Virus record (IMG/VR): IMGVR_UViG_3300021963_000087
Coordinates: 1 to 64,000 of that record
Reading direction: 5' to 3' (one strand)
DNA: 64,000 bases
Source: a virus
Lineage: Duplodnaviria; Heunggongvirae; Uroviricota; Caudoviricetes
Shown here: positions 4,551 to 62,740 of the stretch, piece by piece
Layout of the letters: each line of letters begins with the position of its first letter
Position numbering within the stretch: the stretch's first letter is position 1
Made by a program: the position numbers and the translations under genes
The notes under the pieces: model-generated
Databases searched by the model: none
Told to the model about the DNA's origin: nothing
Seen by the model: the letters and a program-made list of their open reading frames with translations, nothing else

Positions 4551-5024
4551 ATGAAGACTATTTTTAAATCTACCAAATTATTTGACGGCTATTCTACCTG
4601 CTTCCGTCAATGGAAAGCAGAAGGTACACATTGTAAATTTTTACACGGATATGCTGTATCTTTTAGAGTGTGGTTTGAAGGAGAGTTGGATGAAAGAAAC
4701 TGGGTATTTGACTTTGGTGGTATGAAGCGTGCAAAGTGTAATATCGAAGGTAAGTCACCTAAAGATTTCTTTACTTGGTTATTAGACCATACAACAGTAG
4801 TAGCAGAAGATGATCCATACTTAGAGCTTTTCAAGCAAATGGACAAAGATGGTATTATTCAATTGCGAGTACTACCTTCAGTAGGCTGTGAAAGATTTGC
4901 TCACTATTTGTATGACAAGATCAATACATTCTTATTAGAAGAAACACAAGGAAGAGTGAGAGCAGTTAAAGTAGAAGTATACGAGCATGAAAGAAACTCA
5001 GCTTCGTATGAACAACAAGATTAA
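4551..5024 (+). CDS. queD: QueD/PTPS-family 6-carboxytetrahydropterin synthase-like
   Basis: Aligns with E. coli QueD around the catalytic Cys and the HGH-like motif (THCKFLHGY; LLDHTTVV). It is divergent and may lack one Zn-binding His. Confidence 0.6.
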   Translation: MKTIFKSTKLFDGYSTCFRQWKAEGTHCKFLHGYAVSFRVWFEGELDERNWVFDFGGMKRAKCNIEGKSPKDFFTWLLDHTTVVAEDDPYLELFKQMDKDGIIQLRVLPSVGCERFAHYLYDKINTFLLEETQGRVRAVKVEVYEHERNSASYEQQD

Positions 5025-8058: not shown

Positions 8059-8256
8059 ATGAAAAAGTATTTTGAACGTTTCGAGCCACTCTTTGTGGCT
8101 TTAGGAGCTCTCGTATTCATTTACGTAGGGCTGTTTCCAGGATTAACCTCAGCAAACACTTTCGTTAATGTAATTTGTACAGCAGGCCTAATAGGATTGG
8201 CTATCTTTTTGTATGTATACTACGAAGATTATTTCACCACTAAAAAAGAAGATTAG
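8059..8256 (+). CDS. small membrane protein (possible NfeD-like partner of SPFH protein)
   Basis: Two predicted TM helices. It lies immediately upstream of the SPFH gene. Confidence 0.35.
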   Translation: MKKYFERFEPLFVALGALVFIYVGLFPGLTSANTFVNVICTAGLIGLAIFLYVYYEDYFTTKKED

Positions 8257-8257
8257 T

Positions 8258-9172
8258 ATGGCATACGAAAGTTGGGAAGAAAGGGAAGCTCGTTACAGAG
8301 AACAAGAAAAACAAAACAGATTAAAACAACAAATAAAAATTAAACAAATGATTAAGTTATCAAGTCTCGGTGTTATAGGATTAATCCTAATGGTTTTATT
8401 AGTTAAGTCTTGCGAAAGAATCGATGCAGGACATGTGGGTGTTAAAGTAAATCTCTATGGAGATAATAAAGGTGTAAGTGATGTTACTGAAGTAACAGGT
8501 ATGGTGTTTTTTAATCCAATCACACATCAGATCTATGAGTTTCCGACCTTTATTCAACATAAAGAGTATACAGGTGATAATGCATTTATTGTAAACTCTA
8601 AGGATGGTAGTGAGTTTCATATTTCTCCTATCATTAACTACTCTGTAAAACGTGAAAAAGTACCATCTATCTTTGCTAAGTATCGTAGAAGCTTGGGTGA
8701 GATTGAAGATGGCTTCTTAAAGACTAACATTTACGATGCATTTCGTATGACAGCTAACTTTTATACAGCTGAAGAGTTAATTAGCAATCGTCAGTTATTT
8801 GAAACAAAGGTGAGACAAACATTAGATGCCAGCTTATTACCAGAAGGATTCATTATTAATCAATTGACTTCTAACTTAGTTTATCCTGAAACATTTAAAA
8901 GAGCTATTGAAGCTAAGAATAACGCAGTTCAATCAGCATTAATGGCTGAGAATAAGGTAAAGCAAGCAGAAGCTGAAGCTAAGATTAAAGTAGCTACTGC
9001 TGAAGGTAACGCATCAGCAATGCTAACATCAGCTAAAGCAGAAGCAGAGGCGAATAGATTAAAGCAACAAACCATTACTCCGATGTTATTACAATTAGAG
9101 TGGATCAATAAATGGGATGGTAAGCTACCAGTGTATGGTCAAGCTCCAATGTTGTATAAACCAATTAACTAA
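8258..9172 (+). CDS. SPFH/band-7 (stomatin/prohibitin/HflC-like) membrane protein
   Basis: N-terminal TM helix followed by an SPFH-like core. The C-terminus is an Ala/Glu-rich coiled coil (AEAEAKIKVATAEGNASAMLTSAKAEAEANRLK). The start was chosen at the non-overlapping ATG 8258; the ORF track starts at 8213. Confidence 0.5.
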   Translation: MAYESWEEREARYREQEKQNRLKQQIKIKQMIKLSSLGVIGLILMVLLVKSCERIDAGHVGVKVNLYGDNKGVSDVTEVTGMVFFNPITHQIYEFPTFIQHKEYTGDNAFIVNSKDGSEFHISPIINYSVKREKVPSIFAKYRRSLGEIEDGFLKTNIYDAFRMTANFYTAEELISNRQLFETKVRQTLDASLLPEGFIINQLTSNLVYPETFKRAIEAKNNAVQSALMAENKVKQAEAEAKIKVATAEGNASAMLTSAKAEAEANRLKQQTITPMLLQLEWINKWDGKLPVYGQAPMLYKPIN

Positions 9173-10018: not shown

Positions 10019-10343
10019 ATTACAAGTTGATGGCATGCACAACTTTCCTAAAGCAGCAGAGTTGTTTCCAGAAGTAGCTTTTTTAGCAGAAAGACATAGA
10101 CATATATTTCACATCGAATTGAAAAAAGAAGTATTTCACGATGATAGAGATGTTGAGTTTATAATGTTTAAAAAAGACGTTACTGACTTTTTGAAGCAAA
10201 TGTACTATAAGCCTGAAACTCGCACACATGAGTTTGGTCCCATGAGCTGTGAAATGATAGCTAGGCAATTATTAAACCAATTCCACTGTATATCAGTGAC
10301 TGTCTGGGAGGACTTAGAAAATGGAGCAATCGTTGAAGCATAA
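9996..10343 (+). CDS. hypothetical protein
   Basis: ORF in array. Confidence 0.35.
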   Translation: MRTSVIVRLQVDGMHNFPKAAELFPEVAFLAERHRHIFHIELKKEVFHDDRDVEFIMFKKDVTDFLKQMYYKPETRTHEFGPMSCEMIARQLLNQFHCISVTVWEDLENGAIVEA

Positions 10344-11433
10344 AGTAACGCTAGTATTCGGGAGAATATGTAGTGGAAAAGGATCTTATATGAAGGATGC
10401 TGATAAGCGAATTGTGGTATCGGATATTGTAAAGAATATTATAAGCTCAAACAATAGAGATGCTTTGCAAAATTCCTTGCATTTGGATAATCAGATAGGT
10501 ACTACTTTGATTAATAGCATTTACATAGCTAGCATGGCTAATAGAGAACATGTTGTAGTAGATGGTATTAGACAAGTATCGATCGTAGACAGGGTTCTAA
10601 ACGCTTTTCCAGAGGCTGAATTGGTTTGGTTAGAAGTTCCAGTGGAGGAACGTAAACGAAGATATGAAGCTAGAAAGGATGTTAAGGACGTTGAATCATT
10701 CGAATTAGCAGATAATAAGGCTATAGAGTTGGAATGTCAGAAGATATTTCATACCTTTAAAGATAAATTAACAATTATAAACAATTACCAAATGGAATTA
10801 ATTAAAAAAGCTAACGGCAATATCGTTCGTACAGCTGAAGAAAAAGCTCAAATGATTGAGGAAGCTGCTAAATACTATGGACAGTTTTTAACAGCAATGG
10901 GTTTTGATTGGGAGGCTGATCCTCACTCGGCTGACACTCCAAAAAGAGTAGCAAAAGCTTGGGTGACTGATTTAATTAAAGGTTCAATAAATCCTGCTCC
11001 AGTAATAACAGCGTTTCCTAACGATGAAGGTTATACAGGATTAATATGTCAAACTCGTATTCCAGTGGTTAGTATGTGTGCTCACCACAATTTGCAATTT
11101 GTTGGTTTATGTCACGTAGCATATATTCCTGGCAAAGAAAAAACTGATATGGTTATTGGTTTAAGTAAACTAAATCGTATTGTGGATTTTTATAGTCGTA
11201 GACCTAATATACAAGAGTCTTTAACCAAGCAAATTCACGATGAAATTGATAAGTTATGCGTTGGTAATCGTGGAGTGGCTGTGATTGTTGAATCACAACA
11301 TAACTGTGTGCGATGCAGACAACTAAACCACGAAAGTGTGATGAAGACTTCACAGCTATCCGGCTACTTCCATACGAATGAGGTGGGTACTCGCGTAGAG
11401 CTATTTAGCTTAATTGAAAATTCTCGATTGTAA
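10321..11433 (+). CDS. folE: fusion: dNMP-kinase-like P-loop domain + GTP cyclohydrolase I (FolE)
   Basis: N-terminus has the P-loop VFGRICSGKGSY and a VVDGIRQ motif resembling T4 gp1 dNMP kinase. The C-terminal ~190 aa is clearly FolE (CAHHNLQF, GLSKLNRIVDFYSRRPNIQE). Confidence 0.8.
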   Translation: MEQSLKHKVTLVFGRICSGKGSYMKDADKRIVVSDIVKNIISSNNRDALQNSLHLDNQIGTTLINSIYIASMANREHVVVDGIRQVSIVDRVLNAFPEAELVWLEVPVEERKRRYEARKDVKDVESFELADNKAIELECQKIFHTFKDKLTIINNYQMELIKKANGNIVRTAEEKAQMIEEAAKYYGQFLTAMGFDWEADPHSADTPKRVAKAWVTDLIKGSINPAPVITAFPNDEGYTGLICQTRIPVVSMCAHHNLQFVGLCHVAYIPGKEKTDMVIGLSKLNRIVDFYSRRPNIQESLTKQIHDEIDKLCVGNRGVAVIVESQHNCVRCRQLNHESVMKTSQLSGYFHTNEVGTRVELFSLIENSRL

Positions 11434-13592: not shown

Positions 13593-14402
13593 ATGAAAAA
13601 AGTAAAGTACGGATACATATCCCCAATTAAGTATCAGCACCTCATTCCAGAGAGTGCTGACTTTCATTTGATATTAGCTCACTTATTAGATAAGAAAGAG
13701 TACGTAGATTTCTACAAAGAGAAGATCAAGAGAGGCGATACAGTGATATTAGATAACTCAGCATTTGAGTTCAAGAGAGCGTTATCAGCTGAAGAGATCT
13801 TTGGCTTTATTGAACGTAGTGGCATTGAACCAACATATGTAGTAGCTCCAGATTACCCATTCCAAGAATGGCAAGTTACTATGGAATCTACTCTAGCTTT
13901 TATAGAAGAAGTTAAAGATAAACCTTACAAAGTAATGGCTGTTCCTCAAAGTAGAAGAGGTGATGTAGATGGATGGGTAACATGTTATGATTTAATGGTT
14001 ACGAATCCTAACATTAGTGTAATTGGTATGTCTATTTTAGGCATTCCTAACGCATTCCATGCGATGACTGGTACAGACGATATCGCTTTTAATAGAATAT
14101 TTGCAACCAAATATTTATTAGAGCGTAAGAATAACCATCCAACTAAGTGGCATCACTATTTGGGATTGGGTGGAGGACCGAGAGAAATCTTGATTCAAAG
14201 GCAGTTAGGATTAATGGATAGTAATGATTCATCTTCTCCTTTCTGGCATGGTTGTATGAATATTCATTTTGATAAAAGCATTTGGGGATTACAATATGGA
14301 AAAAGCAAGGAAGAAGTTAACTTCGATTTTGAATACTATCCAGGAAATGCTGAAGTTATTAAATATAACATCGATTACATGGAAAATGTTATTTTAAAAT
14401 AA
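13593..14402 (+). CDS. dpdA: DpdA-like / tRNA-guanine transglycosylase-fold protein (7-deazaguanine DNA transglycosylase candidate)
   Basis: ILDNSAFEF resembles the TGT DSGGFQ substrate-Asp motif. HHYLGLGGGPREIL...GLMDSNDSSSP resembles the TGT LMGVGxP...D motif. No C-terminal Zn site. Confidence 0.5.
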   Translation: MKKVKYGYISPIKYQHLIPESADFHLILAHLLDKKEYVDFYKEKIKRGDTVILDNSAFEFKRALSAEEIFGFIERSGIEPTYVVAPDYPFQEWQVTMESTLAFIEEVKDKPYKVMAVPQSRRGDVDGWVTCYDLMVTNPNISVIGMSILGIPNAFHAMTGTDDIAFNRIFATKYLLERKNNHPTKWHHYLGLGGGPREILIQRQLGLMDSNDSSSPFWHGCMNIHFDKSIWGLQYGKSKEEVNFDFEYYPGNAEVIKYNIDYMENVILK

Positions 14403-14599
14403 TGAAGGAATTTGACCCTAAACAAAAATCTCAAGGCTTAGGCGATACCATTGCTAAGTTTACAAACTTCTTTGGTATCGACAAGCTAGCGGATTGGGTA
14501 GCAAAGATGTTCGGAAAGAAGGATTGTGGATGTAATCGCCGTAGGAAACAATTAAATAAAATAGTATCTTATAAAGATGATAATAATAGACCTAAATAA
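14402..14599 (+). CDS. hypothetical protein
   Basis: ORF in array. Confidence 0.3.
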   Translation: MKEFDPKQKSQGLGDTIAKFTNFFGIDKLADWVAKMFGKKDCGCNRRRKQLNKIVSYKDDNNRPK

Positions 14600-14765
14600 A
14601 TACAAATCTATAGAGCATGCTCTTAAGGTTTATAAGCAAAAGCATAATAAGATCGGTACTGTAAAAGAACTACGTGATAGACAAACCTTTACAAAGCCTT
14701 CTGTTAAGCGCAGAGCTGAGTTATTAAATGCAAAATACAAACAACAAAAATACGGAAATCAATAA
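14577..14765 (+). CDS. basic small protein
   Basis: ORF in array; Lys/Arg-rich. Confidence 0.3.
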   Translation: MIIIDLNKYKSIEHALKVYKQKHNKIGTVKELRDRQTFTKPSVKRRAELLNAKYKQQKYGNQ

Positions 14766-16479: not shown

Positions 16480-18789
16480 ATGCAAGAAAAAAGCTACGTT
16501 ACAGTCAATAGCAAAGAGACTTTAAAAGAATTACTAGAACATATTAAGAACAGCGAACTCGTTGCATACGATACTGAGACCGATAGTTTGAATCCTCGTA
16601 AAGGTTTGATTATTGGTTTTTCTGTATCTGGTGAAATTGGCAAGGGTTACTATATGCCAATCCGTGAATGGAAGAACGATCACTTAGAAGAAATTATAAT
16701 AGAAGGTACTAATGCTGATAAACTAGCTAAGTTTGCTATTAGTCAATTACTAAATAAAAAGCTAGTGATGCATAACGCATCATTCGATGTTCGATTTACA
16801 AAGAACTTTTACGGAATAGATTTACTCCCAGCCTTATATGCCGATACCGGATTACTTGTACATACAGTAAGAGAGGAAGGAGCATTTGGATTTGGTAATC
16901 CTTTTGGATTGAAGTCTATTGCTAAGATGGTTCAAGCAGATATCGGACTTAATGTAGAAGAAGAAGCTAACGAGGAACAACTAGAATTAAAAGCAAGTAT
17001 TAAAGCTAATGGAGGATCTACCTCAAAAGATAACTTTGAGATTTTCAAAGCAGATATGAAAATACTTTCTAAGTATGCAGCTGCCGATACAGATTTAACA
17101 TTAAGAATCTACCATCATTTTTTAGGATTACTTAAAGAAGAGGATCTTGAGAAGTTTTTCTTTGAGGATGAAGTAATGCCTTTATACAAAGAAGTTACAG
17201 TTCCTATGGAAGATTATGGTGTGAGAGTAGATGTACCTTTAATGCAAGAGATTAGAGCTAAGATAACCGAAGATCTAAAGTCTTATGGAGAGAAAGTAAC
17301 TGCTACTTTATTACAAGAGCCTAAAATTAGAACTTGGATTATAGAAAGAGCTTGGGAAGCTTATCCACCTAAGAATAAAGGAACCTTTGCTCAACGATTA
17401 TTAGAGCAAGCAGGTAGCAATTTGATAAAGTCTGAAAAGACTGGTAAGTACACTTTGAACAAATCATCTCTTACAGCGATGGAAGAAAGTCCTGTTAAGT
17501 ATTATTTACTAACTGGTGATGAAAGTCACTTAACCAAAGAGCAAATTGTTAGATGTAGTCTCTCTTTGTGGAAGGAAGATAATGGTGGTGAGTTCTTTAA
17601 TATCCAATCTAAGGACCAATTAGGTAAAATAGCCTTTGATGTATTAGGTTTAAAACCTCTATCATCAACAACTAAAGGCAAAGCTCAGTTTGATGAAGAT
17701 ATGATTCAATCTATTAGTGATCAATTTGAATGGGCTAAGTATTTAAGAATTTATAACAAACTAACTAAGATCAAATCAGCTTATATTGATCGCTTTTTGG
17801 ATTCATCCGAAGATGGAAGATTCTATCCTTACTTCAAACAGAACGGAACTGTATCTGGAAGATATGGATCTGACTTACAACAGCTACCTAAACCATTAGA
17901 ACCAGGACAGGACGAAGAGATTATTATGGAATACACTAACATTGTTAGAGCATTCTTTATTTGTGATGATGGATATAAGCTATTAGATACTGACTACGCT
18001 TCGTTAGAGCCTAGAGTGTTTGCAACTGTAGCTGGTGATCCAGGTTTGAAAGAGATCTTTAATAACGACTTAGACTTCTATTCTCACATTGCTATCAAAA
18101 CTGAAAAGCTAGAAGGTGTTAGTGCACATACAAAAGCACCCAACTTCCTTAAAAAGGTAGATCCAGTTAAAAGACAAACAGCTAAGTCATATTCATTAGG
18201 TGTGCCTTATGGTATGTCAGGCTATGCTTTAGCAATGTCTCTAAACGTAAGCAAGGAAGAAGGACAAAGACTTGTAGAAGGTTACTTAGAGGGATTTCCA
18301 CAACTAAGAGAATGGAGAGAAAACTCACGAGCATTTGTAAAAGAGAATGGATACATTAAAAATAAGGTAGGAAGGATTCGACATCTACCTATCGCCAAGA
18401 AAGTTTATGCCAAGTACAAAGATCAACTCATTGATGATTGGAGATTTAGAAAAGAATTAGAACGTGGATATGGAGTTGAGTTAGTAACTAAGATCTATAA
18501 GGATTATAAAAATGCATTGAATAACTGTTTAAACTTCCAAATTCAGAGTTATTCTGCTAGTATTGTAAATAGAGCTGCTTTACAAATAAACCGTAAATTT
18601 AAGCAGGAAAACATAGAAGGACAGGTGATTGCTCAGATACATGACCAATTAATTTGTCAAGTGAAAGAAGAGTTTGTTCCTAGAGCTTGTGAGATTGTAC
18701 AAGATTGTATGGAAAATACAACTAAACTAGATGGTGTAAACTTAATTGCTGAGCCTGAGGTTACAATAAATTTTAGGGATGGCCATTAA
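16480..18789 (+). CDS. DNA polymerase I-like (family A) with 3'-5' exonuclease domain
   Basis: Exo I motif AYDTETDSL. Pol motif A region DYASLEPRV, motif B RQTAKSYSLGVPYG, and motif C QIHDQLICQV. Confidence 0.9.
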   Translation: MQEKSYVTVNSKETLKELLEHIKNSELVAYDTETDSLNPRKGLIIGFSVSGEIGKGYYMPIREWKNDHLEEIIIEGTNADKLAKFAISQLLNKKLVMHNASFDVRFTKNFYGIDLLPALYADTGLLVHTVREEGAFGFGNPFGLKSIAKMVQADIGLNVEEEANEEQLELKASIKANGGSTSKDNFEIFKADMKILSKYAAADTDLTLRIYHHFLGLLKEEDLEKFFFEDEVMPLYKEVTVPMEDYGVRVDVPLMQEIRAKITEDLKSYGEKVTATLLQEPKIRTWIIERAWEAYPPKNKGTFAQRLLEQAGSNLIKSEKTGKYTLNKSSLTAMEESPVKYYLLTGDESHLTKEQIVRCSLSLWKEDNGGEFFNIQSKDQLGKIAFDVLGLKPLSSTTKGKAQFDEDMIQSISDQFEWAKYLRIYNKLTKIKSAYIDRFLDSSEDGRFYPYFKQNGTVSGRYGSDLQQLPKPLEPGQDEEIIMEYTNIVRAFFICDDGYKLLDTDYASLEPRVFATVAGDPGLKEIFNNDLDFYSHIAIKTEKLEGVSAHTKAPNFLKKVDPVKRQTAKSYSLGVPYGMSGYALAMSLNVSKEEGQRLVEGYLEGFPQLREWRENSRAFVKENGYIKNKVGRIRHLPIAKKVYAKYKDQLIDDWRFRKELERGYGVELVTKIYKDYKNALNNCLNFQIQSYSASIVNRAALQINRKFKQENIEGQVIAQIHDQLICQVKEEFVPRACEIVQDCMENTTKLDGVNLIAEPEVTINFRDGH

Positions 18790-18901
18790 TTTTAATAAAA
18801 AGCAGTATATTTATTAAGACAAAGAGGTACTTGGTAGGCCTCGGTTACGAACAATAAAATTTATAAACCGTTCACCGTAAGGGAACACAAACTTAAACAA
18901 C

Positions 18902-19336
18902 ATGGGAAACTTTAGACCCTTCGAGCTAGATCCATTTGACTTGCTTTGGAGAAATTTACTAGACACACAATCACACTTTACTGCACTCACGCAGAAAATC
19001 ACACATCCAGTAGACATTTTTGAAACAGAACAAGGCGTACTCTTTGAAGTAGCTGCTGTAGGACTTTGTCAAGAAGACATTGAAATTCTTGTCGACGGAG
19101 ATCAATTACGCATCAAACACGATGCAAAACCATTTAATCAAGAAAACGCTCTTTACAGAGGTATTAAAAGATCTGGTTTTGACCTTACTTTTAAGATCTC
19201 AACTAAGTTTGATCTATCACAGTTAGCAGCATCTTTAGACAAAGGATTACTAACTCTCAGTATTCCAGTTGCTGAAGGTAAAGCAGTGCGTAGAATTGAA
19301 ATCAATGTGCCAAAAGCACTTCCAGCTAAAAAATAA
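18902..19336 (+). CDS. small heat-shock protein (Hsp20/alpha-crystallin family)
   Basis: Alpha-crystallin core PVDIFETEQGVLFEVAAVGLCQEDIEILVDGDQLRI. Confidence 0.75.
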   Translation: MGNFRPFELDPFDLLWRNLLDTQSHFTALTQKITHPVDIFETEQGVLFEVAAVGLCQEDIEILVDGDQLRIKHDAKPFNQENALYRGIKRSGFDLTFKISTKFDLSQLAASLDKGLLTLSIPVAEGKAVRRIEINVPKALPAKK

Positions 19337-19367
19337 ATAAAGGTAAAAGGCCTACCAAATATCTGTT

Positions 19368-19550
19368 ATGTTTAAAAATGAGTTCCTCACCTTTCAAGAC
19401 AACCTCTACGTCATTAAAAAGATTATCCGCGAAGACACAAATCCTGTCATCGACGTTTGGAAAGAACATTTAAGGGCGGATATTGTATTAAGAAGGGATG
19501 GATGGCTCTATTTTTTAGAGTTAGTACCTGATTTAGAAATTATTAATTAA
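19368..19550 (+). CDS. hypothetical protein
   Basis: ORF in array. Confidence 0.3.
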   Translation: MFKNEFLTFQDNLYVIKKIIREDTNPVIDVWKEHLRADIVLRRDGWLYFLELVPDLEIIN

Positions 19551-19558
19551 TAAAGTAT

Positions 19559-19849
19559 ATGAGTAAATTACAACCAATGAATGGCTATCTAATACTGAAG
19601 CCAATTGAAGAAGAGGAGCAAACGTATGGCAACATCGTAATCCCAGATTTAGGTAAAGAGAAGCCTGAAATCGGAATAGTAGTAGCAACATCAGGAACCT
19701 ACAACTTTAATTCAGACAAGTTAGTACCATCAAGTCTACAAGAAGGAGACAAAGTCTTAATTCCAAAATTAGGATCTTTGAGAATTACTGTGGAAGGTGA
19801 GGAGTACTACATTACAAAAGAACAAGACGTTTATTCAAAATTTAATTAA
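19559..19849 (+). CDS. groES: co-chaperonin GroES
   Basis: 96 aa. LKPIEEEEQTYGNIVIPD mobile-loop region and GroES fold pattern. Immediately upstream of groEL. Confidence 0.8.
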   Translation: MSKLQPMNGYLILKPIEEEEQTYGNIVIPDLGKEKPEIGIVVATSGTYNFNSDKLVPSSLQEGDKVLIPKLGSLRITVEGEEYYITKEQDVYSKFN

Positions 19850-19851
19850 AA

Positions 19852-21516
19852 ATGGCAACACAAACAGTTTTTGGAATAGAGCTAAAAAATAAACTATTAG
19901 CAGGTATTAAGCAATTAAACCATTCTGTGTCTTCAACATTAGGACCAGGTGGTAGAACAGTTTTGATCAAGGATAGATCAGGCGAAGTGAAAGTAACTAA
20001 AGATGGTGTGACTGTTGCAAAGTCGTTTCATGAATTAGAAGACCAAGTTGAGGACTTAGGTGCTCAATTAGTAAAGCAAGTATCTATTAAGTCTGCTAAT
20101 GAAGCAGGTGATGGTACTACTACTTCAACTTTACTTACTACTGTTATGGTAGAGGAAGGATTGAAACTAATTAACCAAGGTTCTAATCCAGTAGAAGTTA
20201 AAAAAGCAATTGACAAATATGTAGCACAAGTAGTTGAAAACTTGAGAAACATATCTCAAGACATTTCAACAGAAGAACAGATTAAGCAAGTGGCTACTAT
20301 TTCTGCTAACAACGATACTGAAGTAGGAGAATTAATTGCTACAGCTATTGGTAAAGTTGGTAGAGAAGGTATTGTTACAATTGAAGAATCTAAAACTGGT
20401 GAAACTAGTTTAGAAGTTGTGGAAGGTATGCAGTTTGATAGAGGTTACAAATCTCCTTACTTCGTTACCAACAATAATACAATGACTGCTACATTGGATG
20501 AACCATATGTTTTAATCTACGATGGTAGAATTACTACTGCAGCAGAGTTGTTAAATGTTTTGAATAAGGTAAACTCAGAGAACAAATCTTTGTTGATTGT
20601 TGCTGAGGATATTGATGGTGAAGCATTGGCAACTTTGATTGTTAATAAGATGAGAGGTATTGTTAAAGTGGCTGCTGTTAAAGCACCTGACTTTGGTGAA
20701 AGAAAAACCTTGCTTTTGGAAGACTTAGCTATCTTGACAAAGGGTCAAGTTATAAGTAAAGACAAAGGACATAAGTTAGATAAATTAACACCAGTCCAAT
20801 TAGTAGAATTTTTAGGTAAAGCTAGATTGGTAACAGTTGGTAAAGAAGATACTACAGTTGTAGATGGTAAAGGTGAGACGGAAGCAATTAATGCAAGAGC
20901 TGAAGAAATTAAAGAGCAAATTGAAAAAGCTGGTTCATTCTACGAAAAAGAGAAACTACAAGAGAGATTAGGTAAACTAATTGGTGGTGTAGCTATCATT
21001 TCAGTAGGAGGTAACTCAGACATTGAAATTAAAGAAAAGAAAGATAGAGTAGAAGATGCTTTATTTGCTACCAAAGCAGCATTAGTTGAAGGAGTAGTTC
21101 CAGGTGGAGGTATTGCTTTGATTGAAGCTTTTGAGTCAGTAGGTTTACCACAAACTGCATCAAGCGATAATCAAAAGGGTTGGGATATTGTAAGAAAGGC
21201 TTGTAATAGTCCTTTTACTACAATCTTAACAAATTGCGGTATTGAAGATTATTATGGAATTTTACGTCTTATTAAAGATACACGCGGAGATTTCTTTGCT
21301 GCTTCACAACAAGATGAGTTATTTACCTATAATGCTAAAACCCATACTGTAGTACATGCTGTCGAAGCAGGATTGTTAGATCCCACCAAAGTAACACGCA
21401 CAGCTTTAGAGAATGCAGCATCAGTAGCTGGAACAATATTAACCACCGAATCAGTTATCTTCGAAAAGAAAGACGACAAGTCTAAAGAAGATGACATGAT
21501 GTCACAATACCAATAG
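19852..21516 (+). CDS. groEL: chaperonin GroEL
   Basis: [14 protein letters not shown]-binding motif, [27 protein letters not shown], and the C-terminal tail MMSQYQ. Confidence 0.93.
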
Positions 21517-21518
21517 TT

Positions 21519-21680
21519 ATGTTAGCAGGTATTATCCTATTTGCTTTTATTGCTAATGTTTTAATCATTAGTATGTTTATAGTAGAAGAAAGAATAGAAA
21601 AGCTTCCTCCCGAAAGTAAATTAAAAAAATGGTGGAGAAAGCATTTAATAGGCGAGGATATTTACGGAGACAATTTCTAA
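21519..21680 (+). CDS. small hydrophobic protein
   Basis: 53 aa ORF (below the track cutoff) with one TM helix, followed by a terminator. Confidence 0.25.
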   Translation: MLAGIILFAFIANVLIISMFIVEERIEKLPPESKLKKWWRKHLIGEDIYGDNF

Positions 21681-21686
21681 GATAAG

Positions 21687-21712
21687 CCCCTACTTTTGAG
21701 TAGGGGTTTTCT
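21687..21712 (+). terminator. rho-independent terminator
   Basis: cccctact-tttg-agtagggg stem followed by ttttct. Confidence 0.6.
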
Positions 21713-22056: not shown

Positions 22057-22572
22057 ATGAAGAACTACGTACTATTTTTCCTAGGGACCATCCTATGGTT
22101 CACTTTTCTTGCTAGCTTTTCACATAAAGAAGTTCCTGCATTCGTTCCACAAAAAGCCCACGTAAATTCGGTTATAAACAATATCAAGGTAGGTCCTCTT
22201 ACAGGAAACAAAAACCTTGCATTTGGCGTTAAAAACGTATTAGAGGAAGCTTTACAAGATAAAGGCTTTGATTTAGTAGATCGTTATAGTGCAGATCACA
22301 TAGTAGACGTAGAAATCATATTCTTTGATATTGAAAATACTCAGAAGGGAGTATCAGTGTTCCACAAAGATGAGAATGCTGTAGTAGTGCGAATGAGAGC
22401 AACTCTTTCAGATGGTGAAGGTAAAGTTATTAAAACTGTTATAGCTGAAGATCGTTCTTCAGAAATTAGTACATCAACCCTATTAATTAATCAGGGAGGT
22501 CAATTCAATTCAACAGTACAAAGGAACGCAGTTAAAAAAGCTTGTGTTTTAGTTGTGTCAAAACTTTTTTAG
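22057..22572 (+). CDS. exported/membrane-anchored protein
   Basis: N-terminal hydrophobic signal anchor. Confidence 0.4.
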   Translation: MKNYVLFFLGTILWFTFLASFSHKEVPAFVPQKAHVNSVINNIKVGPLTGNKNLAFGVKNVLEEALQDKGFDLVDRYSADHIVDVEIIFFDIENTQKGVSVFHKDENAVVVRMRATLSDGEGKVIKTVIAEDRSSEISTSTLLINQGGQFNSTVQRNAVKKACVLVVSKLF

Positions 22573-22575
22573 CAA

Positions 22576-24687
22576 ATGAGAAAACTATTAGTATTTATTC
22601 TACTTTTGGTAGGAGTGACTGGGTTTGGTCAAATTAAATTTAAGGCGAGTACATCTATTGGGGGAGCTACTCTTGATAGAGGTAGTGAGTTTGATTATAT
22701 AGTATATGGTAATGGTAATTCCGATGCAACAACTCGCCAATTACTTTTTGATTTGCAATATGATAAAGACAATTTTGAAATAGTATCCGTAAACCATACA
22801 GGTACAGGAGGTAATGGTGGTATCTTACCACAAAACAGTACTATCAATTTATCATACTACAACTATCCTGGCTACAGCTGGGCTGCAGTAACATCAGGCA
22901 ACAGTGCTAACAACACTACAAATGGTAGCACTAACTATCAATACGCTCAGTATGTTTATAGTGGTACTAGTGCAAACGCTATATTAAGAATTACACTTAC
23001 CTGGGCCACTACTTCAGCAATGCCTTATAACTCTTATAGTGATTTTATTAAGGTAAGATTTAGATTAAAAGCAGCATCTACTGCATATACTTTTAATCCA
23101 ATCAAGTTAAACTTTGTTGCAGGTTGGAATAATGCAGGAACTATAGTAGCTACTACAATGGAATCTCCACTATCTACGGCAGTTGTAATGAATCAAAACT
23201 ACGGCAAGTATGTAACTGCAAAAGTTGATCTAAACTCAAACCTATATAATTTAACAGGTTTGAAAGTATCTTTTAAGGATACTGCAACTAATACAGGACA
23301 ACTGTTTAATGTATTATCAGATGGTAGTGTTGATATCAATCAATCTTTATTAGCTGCTAACAAAGTTTACAGTGTTAGTTTAATGCATGAGATGGATAAG
23401 ATCTACACAATATATAATGGTGCAATAACAATATCAGATTTTACTACAGCCCAAAATGAATTCACTTCTATGGGATTAGATGGCACTAATGGTCAAATTT
23501 TAAAAACAGGTCAGTCATTATATGCTGCAGATATTAACAGAAACAATAAAATTGATGGTGGTGACTTGCCTAGATTGTTAGCTCAAATAGCTACTTTAGA
23601 TACTTTAAATACATTGCCAACTGGGTATACAGTAGGTAGTGGTGGTTATATGAGTCTACCAACTTGGAGATCAACTGATGTAACAACTGTAGCTGGTCAA
23701 ACAGAATGGGGATATGTTACACCTGGTACTAACTTTAGTACTTTGCGTATTGACATGAGAAAGTTTCCTAGTGGTGTAGCTGCCAATACCATCAAGAGTA
23801 TCCAGCTATTTGATGTATACACAGGTCCTATTGAGTATATAAGCGAAGATGCTTCTTGGGCACAATACAAAGTACCTTCTACTTTAACCAAAGCTACAGA
23901 TGGTACTTCTATATTCAATTCATACATTAGAAACATAAATGGTCAAAATGCTGACTATGCGTTTCAAGTAGAGTTCGCTTTCAATACCGATCCAGCAAAC
24001 TCTTGGGGAGCAATAACAACTTCAAACTGGAAGGACATATCATATCCTAAGACATACTTTAAGACTACTACATTAGGAGCTAATCAAATTTTAGATCTTA
24101 AGTATCTTTTATGGGGTGATGTAAATAGATCACACTCATCTCAAGTAGTAACTACAAGTGGTGGTAGCAGTACAGTACAAACAAATGCAGTTAATAGCTT
24201 AAGAACGAATGATGCATTTGCAAGTATGGCTACAGCTAATATGGCTTACATCAATACTCCTAACGATATTACTGCTATAGATGTTAATTTAACAAACATA
24301 ACAGTAACATCAAATACTATTGAGATTCCTGTAGATCTTGATACTAAAGGAGCAAGTGTAGGTGGTTTACAATTAGAGTTCCAATACGATCCAACTAAGA
24401 TTAAGTTTGAAGAGATAGTATCAAATATTCCAAGTACTTGGTATGTGTTTGCTACTTCTAAAGATGGCAAGGTTAAGTTTGGAGCTTTGGATCAAAACAA
24501 CAAAACTGGAATCAAAGGAGTTAATACTCCATTTAAATTAAAGTTCTCAACAATTGGTAGTGGAGTTGATATTCTAACATCTGTAAAAGTTTCACCAACT
24601 ATGGATGCTAGTAGTATTAACGGAACCCAATTAGGTATTAATTTAAACAGAACCCAAATCAAATTAACAGGATATAATAACTTCTAA
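22576..24687 (+). CDS. large secreted protein with dockerin/EF-hand-like Ca-binding loop
   Basis: Signal peptide MRKLLVFILLLVGVTGFGQ, motif DINRNNKIDGGDL, and Thr/Ser/Asn-rich beta-type composition. Confidence 0.5.
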   Translation: MRKLLVFILLLVGVTGFGQIKFKASTSIGGATLDRGSEFDYIVYGNGNSDATTRQLLFDLQYDKDNFEIVSVNHTGTGGNGGILPQNSTINLSYYNYPGYSWAAVTSGNSANNTTNGSTNYQYAQYVYSGTSANAILRITLTWATTSAMPYNSYSDFIKVRFRLKAASTAYTFNPIKLNFVAGWNNAGTIVATTMESPLSTAVVMNQNYGKYVTAKVDLNSNLYNLTGLKVSFKDTATNTGQLFNVLSDGSVDINQSLLAANKVYSVSLMHEMDKIYTIYNGAITISDFTTAQNEFTSMGLDGTNGQILKTGQSLYAADINRNNKIDGGDLPRLLAQIATLDTLNTLPTGYTVGSGGYMSLPTWRSTDVTTVAGQTEWGYVTPGTNFSTLRIDMRKFPSGVAANTIKSIQLFDVYTGPIEYISEDASWAQYKVPSTLTKATDGTSIFNSYIRNINGQNADYAFQVEFAFNTDPANSWGAITTSNWKDISYPKTYFKTTTLGANQILDLKYLLWGDVNRSHSSQVVTTSGGSSTVQTNAVNSLRTNDAFASMATANMAYINTPNDITAIDVNLTNITVTSNTIEIPVDLDTKGASVGGLQLEFQYDPTKIKFEEIVSNIPSTWYVFATSKDGKVKFGALDQNNKTGIKGVNTPFKLKFSTIGSGVDILTSVKVSPTMDASSINGTQLGINLNRTQIKLTGYNNF

Positions 24688-29605: not shown

Positions 29606-30298
29606 GTGAAGTCAACAGAAGTTATTTTCTTGGATAAGTATTATGAGTATAGAGATTTTATAGAAGAATGTAAGAGAAAGGAGTATGGTGGTGAATTAGT
29701 ATTACACTTACATCACATACTCCCAAAACATTTAGAAACAGGGTTACCTGATAAAACCAATACAACTTACCTAAGTGTTGATGATCATATAAACGCTCAT
29801 TTACTCTTAGCTAAATGTTTTACTGAAGGTTCTTATGAAAGATTAGCAAATATAAGGTCTGCTAAATTATTATCAAAGAATTCTATAAAAGAGTTGCATT
29901 TATTAGAAGAGTTAAGTAAATTTAGTAAAGGAGTAAATAATCCATTCTTTGGTAAAAAACACACAGAGGATACTAAGGAACTACTTCGCAAAGCTACTAC
30001 GTTGAGTAGAAAGAATGTAAGCTATGAAGAGTTTTACGGAAATAGAGCTGAAGAGGAGAAACAAAAAAGAGCTGTGAAGCAGAAACAAGTTTGGAATAGT
30101 AGATCGAAAAAAGAAAAAGATACTATAAAAGAAAAAATAAAACTGGCTAAGATAAACATGGACGTTTCTGGAGGTAATAATCCAAATTCTAAGGAAGTTT
30201 ACATAGACAGTGTTAAATTTAGTTCAATCTCAGAAGCAAAAAAATATTATAATAAATCAAGATACAAACTTTTTAAAGAACATAAAATAACATACTAA
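29606..30298 (+). CDS. HNH homing endonuclease with NUMOD-like repeats
   Basis: LHLHHILPKH HNH motif and NPFFGKKHTEDTKELLRKA (NUMOD3-like). Confidence 0.65.
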   Translation: MKSTEVIFLDKYYEYRDFIEECKRKEYGGELVLHLHHILPKHLETGLPDKTNTTYLSVDDHINAHLLLAKCFTEGSYERLANIRSAKLLSKNSIKELHLLEELSKFSKGVNNPFFGKKHTEDTKELLRKATTLSRKNVSYEEFYGNRAEEEKQKRAVKQKQVWNSRSKKEKDTIKEKIKLAKINMDVSGGNNPNSKEVYIDSVKFSSISEAKKYYNKSRYKLFKEHKITY

Positions 30299-30822: not shown

Positions 30823-30859
30823 AAATTTGTATATATTTATACTTAGTTCTTTAAAATAT

Positions 30860-31244
30860 GGGGATGCCTGGAATTGATCCAGATGAGATGGGTAGTATCG
30901 CATGCAAGAGCTGGTAGAGCTCAAACAATCTATCGAACAACAAACGACGAAATGTCAACTATGACCTTCGAAGACTTAATGTCTTTCGTAGGCGCGAATG
31001 AGTACGCAGTAGCGGCTTAATTAGCAACGGGTCGGTGCACATATAACCTAGGAACAGAAGTGTTTACAAAGTGATAACACCACCTTAAAAGTGTTAAATG
31101 TTTTCTTTGTTATGTCAAAACAAAGTGGTGGATCTTGGTACTTAATCGTACGGCCCTTTACTGATCAGGTAAAACAGATCTAAGCATGTAAGAATGGTAT
31201 TATTTATACTTCTGGAGACAGGGGTTCGATTCCCCTCATCTCCA
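30860..31244 (+). ncRNA. ssrA: tmRNA (SsrA), full length; tag ends ...GANEYAVAA-stop
   Basis: 5' GGGGAUG pairs with 3' CAUCUCC including the G3-U70 wobble. T-arm is agggg-ttcgatt-cccct. Internal tag ORF reads ggc gcg aat gag tac gca gta gcg gct taa. Confidence 0.75.
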
Positions 31245-31291
31245 CTGGGTGCCTTTTTGTATCTTTTAACTATTTATAGTAAAGGTATAAA

Positions 31292-31933
31292 ATGGCAAAG
31301 CAAACATATGGTACTAGAAAGAAGTATCACTACATCTACAAAACAACTAATTTACTTAGTGGTAGGTATTACGTAGGGATGCATTCTACGGATGATTTAA
31401 ACGATGGCTATATGGGATCGGGTAAACGTCTGAAAGCTTCTATTAAAAAGCATGGAATTGAGAATCATAAATTTGAAATTCTAGAATTTTTTAATTCAAG
31501 AAAAGAGCTCGCTTTAAGAGAAGGACAATTAGTGACGATGAAAGAAGTTGCTAGTAAAGAGTGCATGAATCTTAAAGTCGGTGGTATTGGTGGATTTCCT
31601 CCAAGCGCTAAAAAAATCTTTATGGAGAAGATGAAAGATTTTGACTTCAAGAAAGTATTTGGCGAAAAATGCTCAGAGCGCAATAAAAAACTTTACGAAA
31701 GTGGAGTTTATAAAAATTTTAAGTATGATTGGACGGGTAAAAAGCACAGACCTGAATCTATTCAGAAAATGAAAGATACTAAGAAAGGTCAAGGTAAAGG
31801 AGAGATAAATTCTCAATTCGGTACTTTTTGGATTACAGACGGTAAAACAAATAAAAAAACAACTTCTAAAATACCAGAAGGATGGTATAGAGGAAGAGTT
31901 CTTAAAAATACAAATAACTGTGTGACCGAATAA
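31292..31933 (+). CDS. GIY-YIG homing endonuclease
   Basis: YIYKTTNLLSGRYYVGMHS...DGYMGSG; the GIY-YIG motifs are intact. Confidence 0.85.
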   Translation: MAKQTYGTRKKYHYIYKTTNLLSGRYYVGMHSTDDLNDGYMGSGKRLKASIKKHGIENHKFEILEFFNSRKELALREGQLVTMKEVASKECMNLKVGGIGGFPPSAKKIFMEKMKDFDFKKVFGEKCSERNKKLYESGVYKNFKYDWTGKKHRPESIQKMKDTKKGQGKGEINSQFGTFWITDGKTNKKTTSKIPEGWYRGRVLKNTNNCVTE

Positions 31934-32237: not shown

Positions 32238-32309
32238 CGCAAGATAGAGCAGAGGTAGCTCACTAGGCTCATAACCTAGGGGTCGAAGGTTCGAATCCTT
32301 CTCTTGCAA
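32238..32309 (+). tRNA. tRNA-Met (CAT), initiator-like
   Basis: C1-A72 mismatch, D-arm gagc-agaggta-gctc identical to E. coli tRNA-fMet, anticodon loop ctCATaa, T-loop ttcgaat, 3' GCAAC. Confidence 0.75.
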
Positions 32310-32316
32310 CAAATAT

Positions 32317-32448
32317 GCCAGAGTGGCGGAATAAACAATGCATTGCTATACACGCGTTAAAGCACTAATGCATTGAGACGTGCCCTAATCCGGAGTGGTG
32401 CAGTGACCGAAAAGGACTGCGTGAAGGTAACCAACCCTTCCTCTGGCA
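32317..32448 (+). ncRNA. tRNA-like structured RNA (132 nt; paired termini, tRNA-Leu-like 5' end, no canonical cloverleaf)
   Basis: 5' gccagag pairs with 3' ctctggc, followed by a-cc. An internal 10-bp hairpin is built from the palindrome caatgcattg, and a second hairpin is gcagt-(11 nt)-actgc. Confidence 0.35.
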
Positions 32449-32462
32449 CCTTAATATAACGA

Positions 32463-32547
32463 AGCCTTGGTGTTGGAACTGGTAGACAAGTCAGACTTAA
32501 AATCTGGTTCGCTGAAAGCGAGTGCGGGTTCGATTCCCGCCTGAGGC
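32463..32547 (+). tRNA. tRNA-Leu (TAA)
   Basis: Class II tRNA. D-arm ttggaactggtagacaa, anticodon loop ctTAAaa, long variable arm, T-arm gcggg-ttcgatt-cccgc. Confidence 0.8.
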
Positions 32548-32571
32548 ACGGGCAGTATTATGTGTATTACT

Positions 32572-32656
32572 TGGAAAGATGGCAGAGTGGTTGAATGCAC
32601 CGGTCTTGAAAACCGGCAACTGTAAAAGGTTCTGGGGTTCGAATCCCTGTCTTTCC
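32572..32656 (+). tRNA. tRNA-Ser (TGA)
   Basis: Acceptor ggaaaga/tctttcc, anticodon stem ccggt/accgg with loop ctTGAaa, long variable arm, T-loop ttcgaat. Confidence 0.8.
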
Positions 32657-32767
32657 GCAAGATGTCTATCCCCCTTCCCAACGAACAGGGCGCTTAGGGT
32701 AGGCCTTTTACCAAAGTGGATAAAACGTGTAGTAACCACAGGGATGCTAGCTCCCACTACACTCTTC

Positions 32768-32838
32768 TGCCCTTTAGTATAACGGTAGTACGGCAGTTTT
32801 TGGTACTGCTTGTTGAGGTTCGAATCCTTGAGGGGCAA
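32768..32838 (+). tRNA. tRNA-Gln (TTG)
   Basis: U1-A72 as in E. coli tRNA-Gln, U8 A9, anticodon stem gcagt/actgc with loop ttTTGgt, T-arm tgagg-ttcgaat-ccttg. Confidence 0.7.
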
Positions 32839-32851
32839 CAAAATAAAAGTT

Positions 32852-35165: not shown

Positions 35166-36596
35166 ATGAAAGAAGGTTACATTCCACAGGCAGATAGAAA
35201 GAAGATTCTATTACTCTGCGATGATATTAGATTTACATCTGGTATCTCAACAATGGCTAAAGAGATTGTCATTGGTACATCACATCGTTTTAATTGGGTA
35301 AACTTAGGAGCAGCTATCACTCATCCTGATCAAGGTAAGAGATTTGATGTTTGCCAAGATACAAACCAAATAGCAGGTATTACCGATTCATCGGTATTCA
35401 TTATACCTACCTCAGGTTATGGTAATCCAGACTTGCTACGTCAAGTAATTGAAATGGAGAAGCCTGATGCATTAATGTTCTTTACCGATCCGAGATATTG
35501 GATTTGGTTATTCCAAATGGAGAACGAGATTAGAAAGAAGATCCCAATGATTTATTTAAACATTTGGGATGACTTACCAGCACCTTTATACAATGAACCA
35601 TACTACGAGTCTTGTGACACATTGTTAGCTATTTCAAAGCAAACTGCTAACATTAATAGATTGGTACTTGGAGATAAGGCTAAGGATAAGATTATTAAGT
35701 ATGTACCTCATGGTATTAACGAGAAAGTATTCTTCCCATTACCTAAAGACACACCTGAGATACAAGCAATGAGAAAGTTATACTTCGGAGATGATCAACC
35801 TGAGTTTGTTTTATTCTACAATGCTAGAAACATTAGACGTAAGTGTACTTCAGATCTTATCTTAGCGTATGCTCAGTTCTGTGATAAGATTGGTAAAGAG
35901 AAAGCTAAAAAATGTGCTTTGCTTTTACATACTCAAAGAGCAGATGAGAATGGTACTGACTTACCAGCTGTTATAGATTTATTCTGTGACCCTGAGTATC
36001 AAAGAGTTGTATTCTCTGAGTACAGATATTCTCCACATCAAATGAATCATTTATACAACTGTGCAGATGCTGTTACTTTAGTTTCTTCTAATGAAGGCTG
36101 GGGCTTATCTTTGACAGAAGGTATGATGACTGGTAAGATGATTATTGGAAACGTAACAGGAGGTATGCAGGATCAAATGAGATTTGAAGATGAGAATGGT
36201 AAGTGGATTGATTTTGATGAGAAGTTCTGTAGCAATCACTTTGGTACTTACAAAAAGCATGGAGAGTGGGCAGTACCTGTGTATCCTTCTAATTTGTCAA
36301 TTGTTGGTTCTATTCCTACTCCATACATTTTTGATGACAGAGCAGACTTTAGAGATATTGCAAAAGCAATTGAGGAAGTTTATAACTTAGGTCCTGAAGA
36401 AAGAGAAAGAAGAGGTTTGAAAGGAAGAGAGTGGGCTACTTCAGAAGAGTCAATGCAAAGTGCTAGTTCAATGTCTAAGAATATTATTGATGGTGTTGAA
36501 GAAACATTTGCTAAGTGGAAGCCGAGAAAGAAACATCAACTTATCAAAGTGAAGAAGCTACCACGTAAAAAGGCAGCACACTCGTTGGTATATTAA
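35166..36596 (+). CDS. glycosyltransferase, GT4-like (GT-B fold)
   Basis: SSNEGWGLSLTEGMMTGKMIIG (E-x7-E motif). Confidence 0.65.
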   Translation: MKEGYIPQADRKKILLLCDDIRFTSGISTMAKEIVIGTSHRFNWVNLGAAITHPDQGKRFDVCQDTNQIAGITDSSVFIIPTSGYGNPDLLRQVIEMEKPDALMFFTDPRYWIWLFQMENEIRKKIPMIYLNIWDDLPAPLYNEPYYESCDTLLAISKQTANINRLVLGDKAKDKIIKYVPHGINEKVFFPLPKDTPEIQAMRKLYFGDDQPEFVLFYNARNIRRKCTSDLILAYAQFCDKIGKEKAKKCALLLHTQRADENGTDLPAVIDLFCDPEYQRVVFSEYRYSPHQMNHLYNCADAVTLVSSNEGWGLSLTEGMMTGKMIIGNVTGGMQDQMRFEDENGKWIDFDEKFCSNHFGTYKKHGEWAVPVYPSNLSIVGSIPTPYIFDDRADFRDIAKAIEEVYNLGPEERERRGLKGREWATSEESMQSASSMSKNIIDGVEETFAKWKPRKKHQLIKVKKLPRKKAAHSLVY

Positions 36597-36620
36597 TAAA
36601 TAAAGTTTATATTTTAAAAC

Positions 36621-37895: not shown

Positions 37896-38320
37896 TGACT
37901 AGTCAAGAATTTGTAATATGGTTAAAAGGATTCACTGAAGGTGTGCATGATTTTAACGTTACACCTAAGCAGTGGGATATAATGAAAGATAGATTAGCAG
38001 AAGTATCAGACGATAAGTTTGCAGAAACACCAGGTATGTTTCAAGATCACACTGTACAATCTTATCCTCCGTATTGGAGTCCACATAGTCCCTTTTACAC
38101 AACAAGTGGTACTAGTGGCTCAATAGATACAAGGAGTATAGTTTCTCAATGGACAACAACTCCAAACAACATTACCTACACAGTAACCTCAGGCTCTTCC
38201 TATATTGGAGCAGGCAGCACTTATACTCATACTTATCCTAACGGAACTACTGTGAGCTATACAGCAGGTGGAACAGATGATAATTGGAATATAAAAAATA
38301 AAGACTTACTACATGATTAA
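37895..38320 (+). CDS. hypothetical protein (Thr/Ser/Tyr-rich C-terminus)
   Basis: ORF in array. Confidence 0.35.
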   Translation: MTSQEFVIWLKGFTEGVHDFNVTPKQWDIMKDRLAEVSDDKFAETPGMFQDHTVQSYPPYWSPHSPFYTTSGTSGSIDTRSIVSQWTTTPNNITYTVTSGSSYIGAGSTYTHTYPNGTTVSYTAGGTDDNWNIKNKDLLHD

Positions 38321-38750: not shown

Positions 38751-38753
38751 ACT

Positions 38754-41196: not shown

Positions 41197-41197
41197 T

Positions 41198-44260: not shown

Positions 44261-44261
44261 T

Positions 44262-51661: not shown

Positions 51662-51673
51662 ATATTTATATAC

Positions 51674-62501: not shown

Positions 62502-62740
62502 GATAATTGAGATCCAAACTTGAGTAACAGAGATCGGTGCGTGGCGATTAAGTATATATATATTTATATTTAATCCTCCCTTCCTTAGGAAGCAGCTGGA
62601 TTAGTGTCTTGGGTTTGGATCTTTTCCTATGGACTATGTACAGTAAACAGTAAAGAGTATGGATAGTGTAGAGATGGAAGCCTTAATAAAGGTATTAACC
62701 CGTATAGAACGTAAATTAGACACAGTAATACGAGCAATAT

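Follow-up and report, generated by a model that had tools for sequence, protein, structure and literature searches.

Here, a complete set of chaperone genes is described in a 64,000-nt stretch of viral DNA (positions 1 to 64,000 of the IMG/VR record IMGVR_UViG_3300021963_000087, assigned to the Caudoviricetes; hereafter the window), where genes for a small heat-shock protein (sHSP; Hsp20), a GroES co-chaperonin and a full-length GroEL lie downstream of a DNA polymerase gene. The sequence makes it likely that these genes, together with a 60-codon gene (orf60) and perhaps a small last gene (orf53), form a phage-owned chaperone operon that runs from a promoter-like box at 18806 to a terminator-like hairpin at 21684-21709. 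Furthermore, hsp20 is bracketed by a co-varying long-range helix that overlaps the orf60 start codon. Modules of this kind have been known since 2017, and the conserved helix around hsp20, which probably acts as RNA, is the new detail. The parts of the unit and its upstream neighbour are as follows, in window coordinates.

16480..18789, + strand: PolA, a family-A DNA polymerase with a 3'-5' exonuclease domain (PF00476, 4e-63; PF01612, 1.4e-13)
18806..18814, + strand: promoter-like box TATATTTAT, ~10 nt 5' of the 5' helix arm
18817..18841, + strand: 5' arm of the long-range helix, with its core AGGTACTTGGTAGGCCT at 18825-18841 (inverted repeat, covariation, fold)
18868..18888, + strand: hairpin CCGUUCACC-GUAA-GGGAACAC of the 5' untranslated region (5'-UTR), with a GNRA loop, 13 nt before the hsp20 ATG
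18902..19336, + strand: hsp20, small heat-shock protein, 144 aa (PF00011, 2.3e-11; phrog_432, 1.6e-8)
19348..19373, + strand: 3' arm of the long-range helix, with its core AGGCCTACCAAATATCT at 19348-19364, beginning 12 nt after the hsp20 stop
19368..19550, + strand: orf60, conserved 60-aa protein, between hsp20 and groES
19559..19849, + strand: groES co-chaperonin, 96 aa (PF00166, 1e-19)
19852..21516, + strand: groEL, full-length group I chaperonin, 554 aa (PF00118, 1.2e-62; phrog_5725, 4e-149)
21519..21680, + strand: orf53, small protein with a hydrophobic N-terminus, the last gene ahead of the terminator (weakly supported)
21684..21709, + strand: intrinsic-terminator-like hairpin at the end of the unit, an 11-bp stem followed by a T-rich tail (hairpin scan)

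In the list of open reading frames (ORFs), hsp20, groES and groEL lie exactly where an earlier note, written from the sequence alone, had placed a chaperone block (18902-21516, + strand), and its naming of the three genes as Hsp20, GroES and full-length GroEL is borne out by Pfam, PHROG and PDB scores far beyond chance. The block does follow directly after PolA, as that note had it, but it is not strictly contiguous, as orf60 separates hsp20 from groES; orf60, the RNA helix around hsp20, the promoter-like box and the terminator were all absent from that account. The genes are closely spaced: hsp20 follows PolA after 112 nt, orf60 follows hsp20 after 31 nt, groES follows orf60 after 8 nt, and groEL and orf53 each begin 2 nt after the gene before. 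Hairpins equivalent to the terminator, with different stem sequences, are present in the related contigs L003, L004, L005 and L028. A sigma-70 promoter scan returned fewer matches than shuffled sequence did and is hence uninformative. Control of the HrcA/CIRCE type was considered and rejected, since an inverted-repeat scan of the region, including both intergenic gaps, gave no operator-like repeat.

Judged by sequence, Hsp20, GroES and GroEL have retained the defining residues of, respectively, a working sHSP, a working GroES and an ATP-hydrolysing GroEL. Hsp20 scores 44.1 bits against PF00011 (cut-off 20.8), covers profile positions 1-102 of 102 and matches the sHSP structures 3w1z and 1gme in the PDB; the C-terminal [IVL]-x-[IVL] anchoring motif, R-R-I-E-I in the window, occurs in 120 of the 121 family members, and the aromatic N-terminal arm FRPFELDPFDLLWR is nearly invariant across homologues. 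GroES scores 70.8 bits against PF00166 (cut-off 21.1) and its PDB matches are GroES. Its mobile loop reads G-N-I-V-I, compared with G-G-I-V-L in E. coli, and retains a hydrophobic tripeptide (I-V-I); across the clade the loop is mostly G-N-I-[VI]-I-P-D, with a few Gln, Ser or Ala variants at the Asn position. The roof hairpin is also present, the stretch aligned with residues 44-58 of E. coli GroES being free of deletions.

GroEL scores 212.7 bits against PF00118 (cut-off 34.3) over residues 23-539 and matches PDB entries with E-values down to 4e-162, the top ones being an ancestral Fibrobacteres-Chlorobi-Bacteroidetes (FCB) chaperonin (543 bits) and Chlorobaculum GroEL (541 bits), versus 468 bits for E. 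coli GroEL; the closer FCB-type structures hint at an old origin of this GroEL from that host group. The nucleotide-binding residues are the same as in E. coli (T30, K51, D52, GDGTTT 86-91, I150, S151, D398, G415 and D495), and the apical residues that bind substrate and GroES are kept (Y199, S201, Y203, F204, L234, L237, L259 and V264, with a conservative Ile at V263). Both sets are invariant or nearly so in the 21 clade members, D87 and D398 being present in 21/21, and the clade has an apical insertion of its own of 3-4 residues.

Codon changes between the window and its close relative L005 show all three chaperone genes to be under purifying selection, with synonymous versus non-synonymous counts of 88/11 for GroEL, 8/0 for GroES and 23/13 for Hsp20. 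The count for orf60 is 12/3, and with 63 protein clusters and mostly synonymous changes it is a real gene; AlphaFold2 predicts a beta-beta-alpha-beta-beta fold for its product (predicted local distance difference test score, pLDDT, 89), and structure and family searches with it gave no informative match. For orf53 the count is 9/8, and its product is 43-85% conserved in close relatives.

Several features of the phage GroEL count against its being a chaperonin of the ordinary kind. The ring-to-ring contact positions A109, E434, R452, S463 and V464 are variable in the phage clade: A109 is replaced by Q in 14/21 members and S463 by Y or W in 17/21, while V464, R452 and E434 also vary. D83 and F44 of E. 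coli GroEL are not conserved either, D83 being Asn in 19/21 and F44 replaced. The GGM-repeat tail, which is typical of GroEL but no strict defining feature, is missing, and the clade has a charged segment and then a short Met-rich end in its place. Given the changes in ring contacts and tail, assembly state and allostery may differ from those of E. coli GroEL. It is even conceivable, if somewhat unlikely, that the protein is a single-ring or otherwise non-canonical chaperonin, like those of OBP/AR9 or mitochondrial Hsp60, and not a GroEL14 double ring. Such phage chaperonins are known (PMC9598537, PMC7185714), and the inter-ring positions that vary in the phage clade are conserved in the 12 cellular sequences compared; however, the known phage cases lack a co-chaperonin, whereas GroES accompanies this GroEL in 68/68 loci, and an inference from a handful of positions is weak.

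Searches of metagenome and genome collections place Hsp20, GroES and GroEL in a deep, virus-only clade with conserved gene order. In the metagenome protein collection, none of the best 120 GroEL homologues falls below 79% identity, and their contigs reach 187 kb; more than 510 viral contigs in IMG/VR carry GroEL relatives, the 80 examined being 62-81% identical. In a neighbour-joining tree the GroEL of the window falls inside an all-viral clade (62-99% identity within the clade) that is separate from Flavobacterium phage immuto; the immuto-like phages branch further out and the cellular GroELs from long contigs of metagenome-assembled genomes (MAGs) lie elsewhere. This tree was built without bootstrap and Bacteroidota host GroELs were not sampled in it directly, which counts against it. 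Gene order was followed by tblastn of the window proteins on the 80 IMG/VR loci, with counts taken over loci that have enough upstream sequence: GroES was found in 68/68, Hsp20 in 58/68 and PolA upstream in 42/54, while orf60 was detected in 41/68, a lower bound for so short a protein. On the metagenomic contigs L003-L005 the gene order matches that of the window, including the genes for ribosomal protein bS21 and a dCTP-deaminase-like protein upstream.

The earlier note had called complete phage GroEL/GroES pairs rare, which is right of cultured phages only; in metagenomes the module is common, as the IMG/VR contigs and 676 Hsp20 protein clusters attest. In a phage collection of 50,697 records, 283 matched the GroEL and 19 this GroES, and some of the matching records are evidently host fragments, for example records of Listeria, Enterococcus and Salmonella. 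Meanwhile, tblastn of Hsp20 against this collection gave no match at E 1e-3, so that no cultured phage appears to carry a close copy.

That the GroEL/GroES/Hsp20 block is host DNA, through recent capture, chimeric assembly or contamination, is extremely improbable. Bacterial GroES-GroEL operons do share the gene order, and host fragments evidently occur among the phage records that match GroEL and GroES. Against this, megablast of the region found no nucleotide match in the phage collection, and a pattern-based, not exhaustive scan of GTDB (one genome per species, 185,579 prokaryotic species) gave best GroEL matches of only 55% and 65%, on MAG contigs of 3.4 and 1.4 kb, with the others, the true cellular copies, at 38-51%. 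When a library clustered at 50% identity was scanned exhaustively with HMMER, the representatives came at 72, 62, 56, 55, 55, 53 and 52% and then levelled out at or below 50%, so identity falls off fast. Furthermore, the block recurs with its phage neighbours on dozens of independent viral contigs, and GC content and strand are uniform. A near-identical host GroEL, which the earlier note had named as the finding that would indicate host DNA, was seen neither in GTDB nor in the clustered library nor in the tree, and the genes are best regarded as phage genes of long standing. The two best GTDB matches are on short contigs, L006 (JABAZD010000017.1) and L007 (RGZB01000178.1), binned in MAGs of Flavobacteriaceae and 'Proteobacteria'; they encode phage-type GroELs (55% and 65%, respectively) and are probably mis-binned viral DNA.

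Apart from a few embedded ones, the 73 ORFs of 100 aa or more in the window all lie on one strand, and GC content is uniform at 0.32-0.37 except at a tRNA cluster. The window has the appearance of a segment from a large phage genome, and its genes include those for a DnaB helicase, ribonucleotide reductase, PolA, GTP cyclohydrolase, glycosyltransferases and homing-endonuclease-like proteins. The source appears to be a large phage, uncultured and related to Flavobacterium phage immuto; this kinship and the resemblance of its GroEL to those of the FCB group point to Bacteroidota as hosts.

The helix that brackets hsp20 is formed by an inverted repeat, 18811-18841 / 19348-19378, with one arm at the start of the leader and the other in the spacer downstream of hsp20; the outer part of the helix reaches the orf60 start codon, of which it pairs the U and the G. 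In the window it has ~23 bp, interrupted by small bulges; in relatives its length is ~12-30 bp, and there the arms change jointly (TTAGCAGGCC, TGTGAGTAGGCC, CGACAGGCCTTTA, CCTAAGGGC and CTCTAGGGCGAG are among 29 distinct helix sequences). Arm duplexes from 54 loci have a mean energy of -28.1 kcal/mol for cognate and -19.0 kcal/mol for non-cognate pairs. The RNAalifold consensus of the 29 sequences has compensatory changes at 11 of 11 pairs, with 47 double-change cells as against 9.2±2.9 in shuffles (reached by 0/500), and the covariation score is 0.475 compared with at most 0.131 when the partners are slid. The helix also closes both the minimum free energy (MFE) and the centroid fold of the 583-nt RNA, and the hsp20 bracket is the sole case in the window, no other gene being bracketed by intergenic repeats. 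Some caution comes from the way the arms were located, by complementarity, which biases toward pairing within each sequence, and from the 7 of 54 loci without a strong helix, which may reflect misjudged gene ends; both tell against the helix as described, and the helix alignment is poor for the most divergent group.

The repeat could instead work in DNA, as paired protein-binding or recombination sites or as the ends of a cassette, although this is decidedly unlikely. A palindrome, AGGCCT, does lie within both arms of the commonest variant, and hsp20 is absent or replaced in 10/68 loci, as would be expected of a swappable cassette. However, the palindrome is lost in the variants GGGCC, AGACC and AGGGC, in which the arms nevertheless stay complementary, and the mismatches are mostly G·T on the + strand. 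On that strand the cores have 5 G·U-type pairs versus 1 A·C-type and the outer helix has 14 G·U, which favours an RNA over a DNA element, as does the recovery of the helix by RNA folding. The orientation of hsp20 is moreover identical in every locus that carries it, for which reason an invertible or mobile hsp20 cassette was rejected. The helix thus probably acts as RNA, in processing or in translational control.

Rfam searches of the whole window recovered only the transfer-messenger RNA (tmRNA) and tRNAs at gathering thresholds, and a search of 18700-19600 gave nothing at E <=5, so the leader belongs to no known thermometer or leader family. An RNA thermometer was also rejected for the long helix, because a GC-rich core of 12 bp or more makes it too stable for such a role and the hsp20 start is left uncovered. 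Stems formed by sequences that flank a functional unit are familiar from pre-rRNA, where they are cut by RNase III, and structured mRNA leaders are familiar from the RNA thermometers of sHSP genes (ROSE, ibpA). In size and in its origin from flanking sequences, the present helix resembles RNase III stems, which take roughly two helical turns of double-stranded RNA. T7 RNase III sites and thermometers are, however, local hairpins, whereas the stem in the window encloses a protein-coding ORF of ~0.5 kb. The likeliest role of the helix in the mRNA would be as an RNase III-type processing site, as a block on orf60 initiation, or both, and such processing or blocking would set the ratio of Hsp20 to the products of the chaperonin genes. 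A bolder version, possible but put forward only tentatively, is that the helix is a dedicated RNA device of the lineage, which would excise or stabilise the hsp20 message through an RNase III-type cut, gate the translation of orf60-groES-groEL and so set the holdase-to-foldase ratio, with the orf60 product as a new accessory factor.

The PolA-hsp20 spacer is conserved at the nucleotide level even though the Hsp20 proteins of relatives are only 45-70% identical. On the + strand the TATATTTAT box occurs 3 times in the window, each time between genes, even though 91% of the sequence is coding; the other two copies lie ahead of the tmRNA gene (30832) and at 62559. It is conserved in relatives and stands directly before groES in L046, a locus that lacks hsp20. 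The box is taken to be a putative promoter, in which case the 5' arm of the helix would lie at the very start of the transcript; the motif itself is what identifies it, a point against setting the start of the operon here with confidence. The 5'-UTR hairpin is unique in the window and part of both the MFE and the centroid fold, and it is conserved in relatives, where the loop reads GUAA, GGAA or GAAA. In some relatives (L065, 2828-3616; L072, 2624-3424) an unrelated gene of ~262 aa occupies the hsp20 position behind the TATATTTAT box, so that the slot after PolA appears exchangeable. The copy at 62559 is enclosed by a 10-nt exact inverted repeat (62510-62519 / 62613-62622), upstream of a 152-aa ORF, and this repeat may mark another structured leader.

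The earlier note saw in the block a dedicated folding system for phage proteins, and this is the most economical reading and a plausible one; the clients it proposed, large structural or glycosylation proteins, are guesswork. Hsp20 would hold unfolded phage proteins, and the phage GroEL, capped by its own GroES, which the Gly-to-Asn change in the mobile loop suggests is co-adapted, would fold the proteins so held. With phage GroEL and GroES at work together, morphogenesis would no longer depend on the host chaperonin, something that T4 gp31 achieves in part. An alternative, on balance unlikely, is that the chaperones are auxiliary 'host-maintenance' genes that look after the proteome of the infected cell under cold, heat or takeover stress. 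The module does sit among genes for replication, nucleotide metabolism and translation support (PolA, the dCTP-deaminase-like protein, bS21, tmRNA, tRNAs) and not among structural genes, and cyanophage sHSPs are usually discussed in these terms (PMC3827213). However, the clade-wide Gly-to-Asn loop of GroES and the divergent cavity and tail of GroEL suggest a private system of altered specificity, and T4 gp31 offers a precedent for capsid folding. The folding of phage proteins and host maintenance could also both be true.

The arrangement as such is not new, as an sHSP with GroES>GroEL next to PolA has been published before (PMC5649160, PMC11348598). In the relevant passages of Marine et al. 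(2017, ISME J; PMC5649160), viral GroEL clades are defined by the position of GroES, and the GroES>GroEL clade is given an upstream sHSP, Leu762 PolA on its contigs and a change from Gly to Asn or Ser in the mobile loop. The window matches these described signatures in its sHSP-GroES-GroEL order, in the Gly-to-Asn loop and in PolA, where a Leu aligns with Phe762 of E. coli Pol I (BLASTP; AKAINF762G versus AKSYSLG), and both GroELs are distinct from cellular ones. The data described there are short virome contigs from Chesapeake Bay (SERC site) and Norway, and those passages mention neither orf60 nor the limits of the operon nor the helix. A 2024 study of DNA polymerase swapping reported that immuto-like phages of 155-190 kb always encode GroEL or GroES near the regular polymerase (PMC11348598). 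The closest isolate, Flavobacterium phage vB_FspM_immuto (Immutovirus, 160 kb), has the same PolA-GroES-GroEL order, with identities of 57% for GroEL, 41% for GroES and 58% for PolA and with queuosine/7-deazaguanine genes nearby, but it lacks hsp20, orf60 and the bracketing helix; its PolA-groES gap is only 63 nt and its GroES loop reads G-S-III where the window has G-N-IVI. A literature search for sHSP, GroESL and Bacteroidetes phage in combination found no description beyond the papers cited here.

The E. coli GroEL/GroES system shares with the window the fold families, the ATPase site, the apical residues, the mobile-loop tripeptide and the operon order. However, the window GroEL is 48% identical to that of E. 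coli over the trimmed tree alignment, lacks the GGM tail and differs at D83N, F44S and the inter-ring residues, while GroES differs at Gly24, which is Asn in the mobile loop. As in T4 (gp31), RB49 (CocO), EL (gp146), OBP and AR9, the phage supplies part of a chaperonin machine for its own proteins. T4 gp31 and RB49 CocO are GroES analogues that work on host GroEL and lack the roof hairpin, and the chaperonins of EL, OBP and AR9 need no co-chaperonin and are very divergent (PMC7185714, PMC9598537), whereas the window encodes both canonical partners and an sHSP. Cyanophage sHSPs (Maaroufi & Tanguay 2013, PMC3827213; S-ShM2 HspSP, PMC5028025) have the alpha-crystallin domain and C-terminal anchoring motif seen in the window, but they are linked to its Hsp20 only by the PHROG profile (1.6e-8), with no tblastn match at E 1e-3, and have no linkage to a phage chaperonin.

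A very abundant group of large phages, known only from metagenomes, thus appears to carry a complete private set of protein-folding genes. The module lends support to the idea that chaperonins are frequent among viruses and follow an evolution separate from that of their cellular counterparts; as this idea is already published, the main contribution is a well-resolved example whose boundaries are exact. What deserves further study is the co-varying helix and the 60-aa gene. A helix that spans ~0.5 kb and encloses just one ORF could offer a clean natural system in which to study how mRNA is processed or its translation gated in Bacteroidota phages, in which initiation independent of Shine-Dalgarno sequences gives leader structure its importance, and the 60-aa protein encoded between holdase and foldase genes is a lead in its own right. 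In addition, a GroEL whose ring contacts are altered, paired with its matched GroES, might interest those who study chaperonin mechanics or seek a folding tool.

The following further features of the window are all on the + strand. Directly after the operon, 22057-24687 encodes a lipoprotein-like protein of 171 aa and a secreted-looking protein of 703 aa with a cohesin domain (PF00963, E 1.5e-6), both conserved in close relatives. The bS21 gene (14577-14765; PF01165, 3.4e-11) lies just upstream of the dCTP-deaminase-like gene and is conserved in L003-L005, where a ferredoxin gene may also occur. The tmRNA gene (30860-31247; RF00023, 75.3 bits) encodes the tag peptide ANEYAVAA and has the TATATTTAT box ahead of it at 30832, and four tRNA genes (Met-CAT, Leu-TAA, Ser-TGA and Gln-TTG; 32238-32839) lie at the only GC bump of the window (0.41). 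Homing-endonuclease-like genes (NUMOD3, 29606-30298; GIY-YIG/SegE-like, 31292-31933; HNH, 53118-53678) include two that flank the tmRNA gene. Genes of the 7-deazaguanine/queuosine type encode a QueD-like PTPS (4551-5024), a GTP cyclohydrolase fusion (10321-11433) and a 269-aa ORF (13593-14402) that occupies the place of the DNA-guanine transglycosylase DpdA of immuto; by analogy with that phage, they suggest modified DNA. A run of glycosyltransferase, aminotransferase and GtrB-like genes (35166-52438) resembles a sugar-modification cluster, and an SPFH/Band 7 protein (8213-9172; PF01145, 1e-20) is encoded in the phage replication region.

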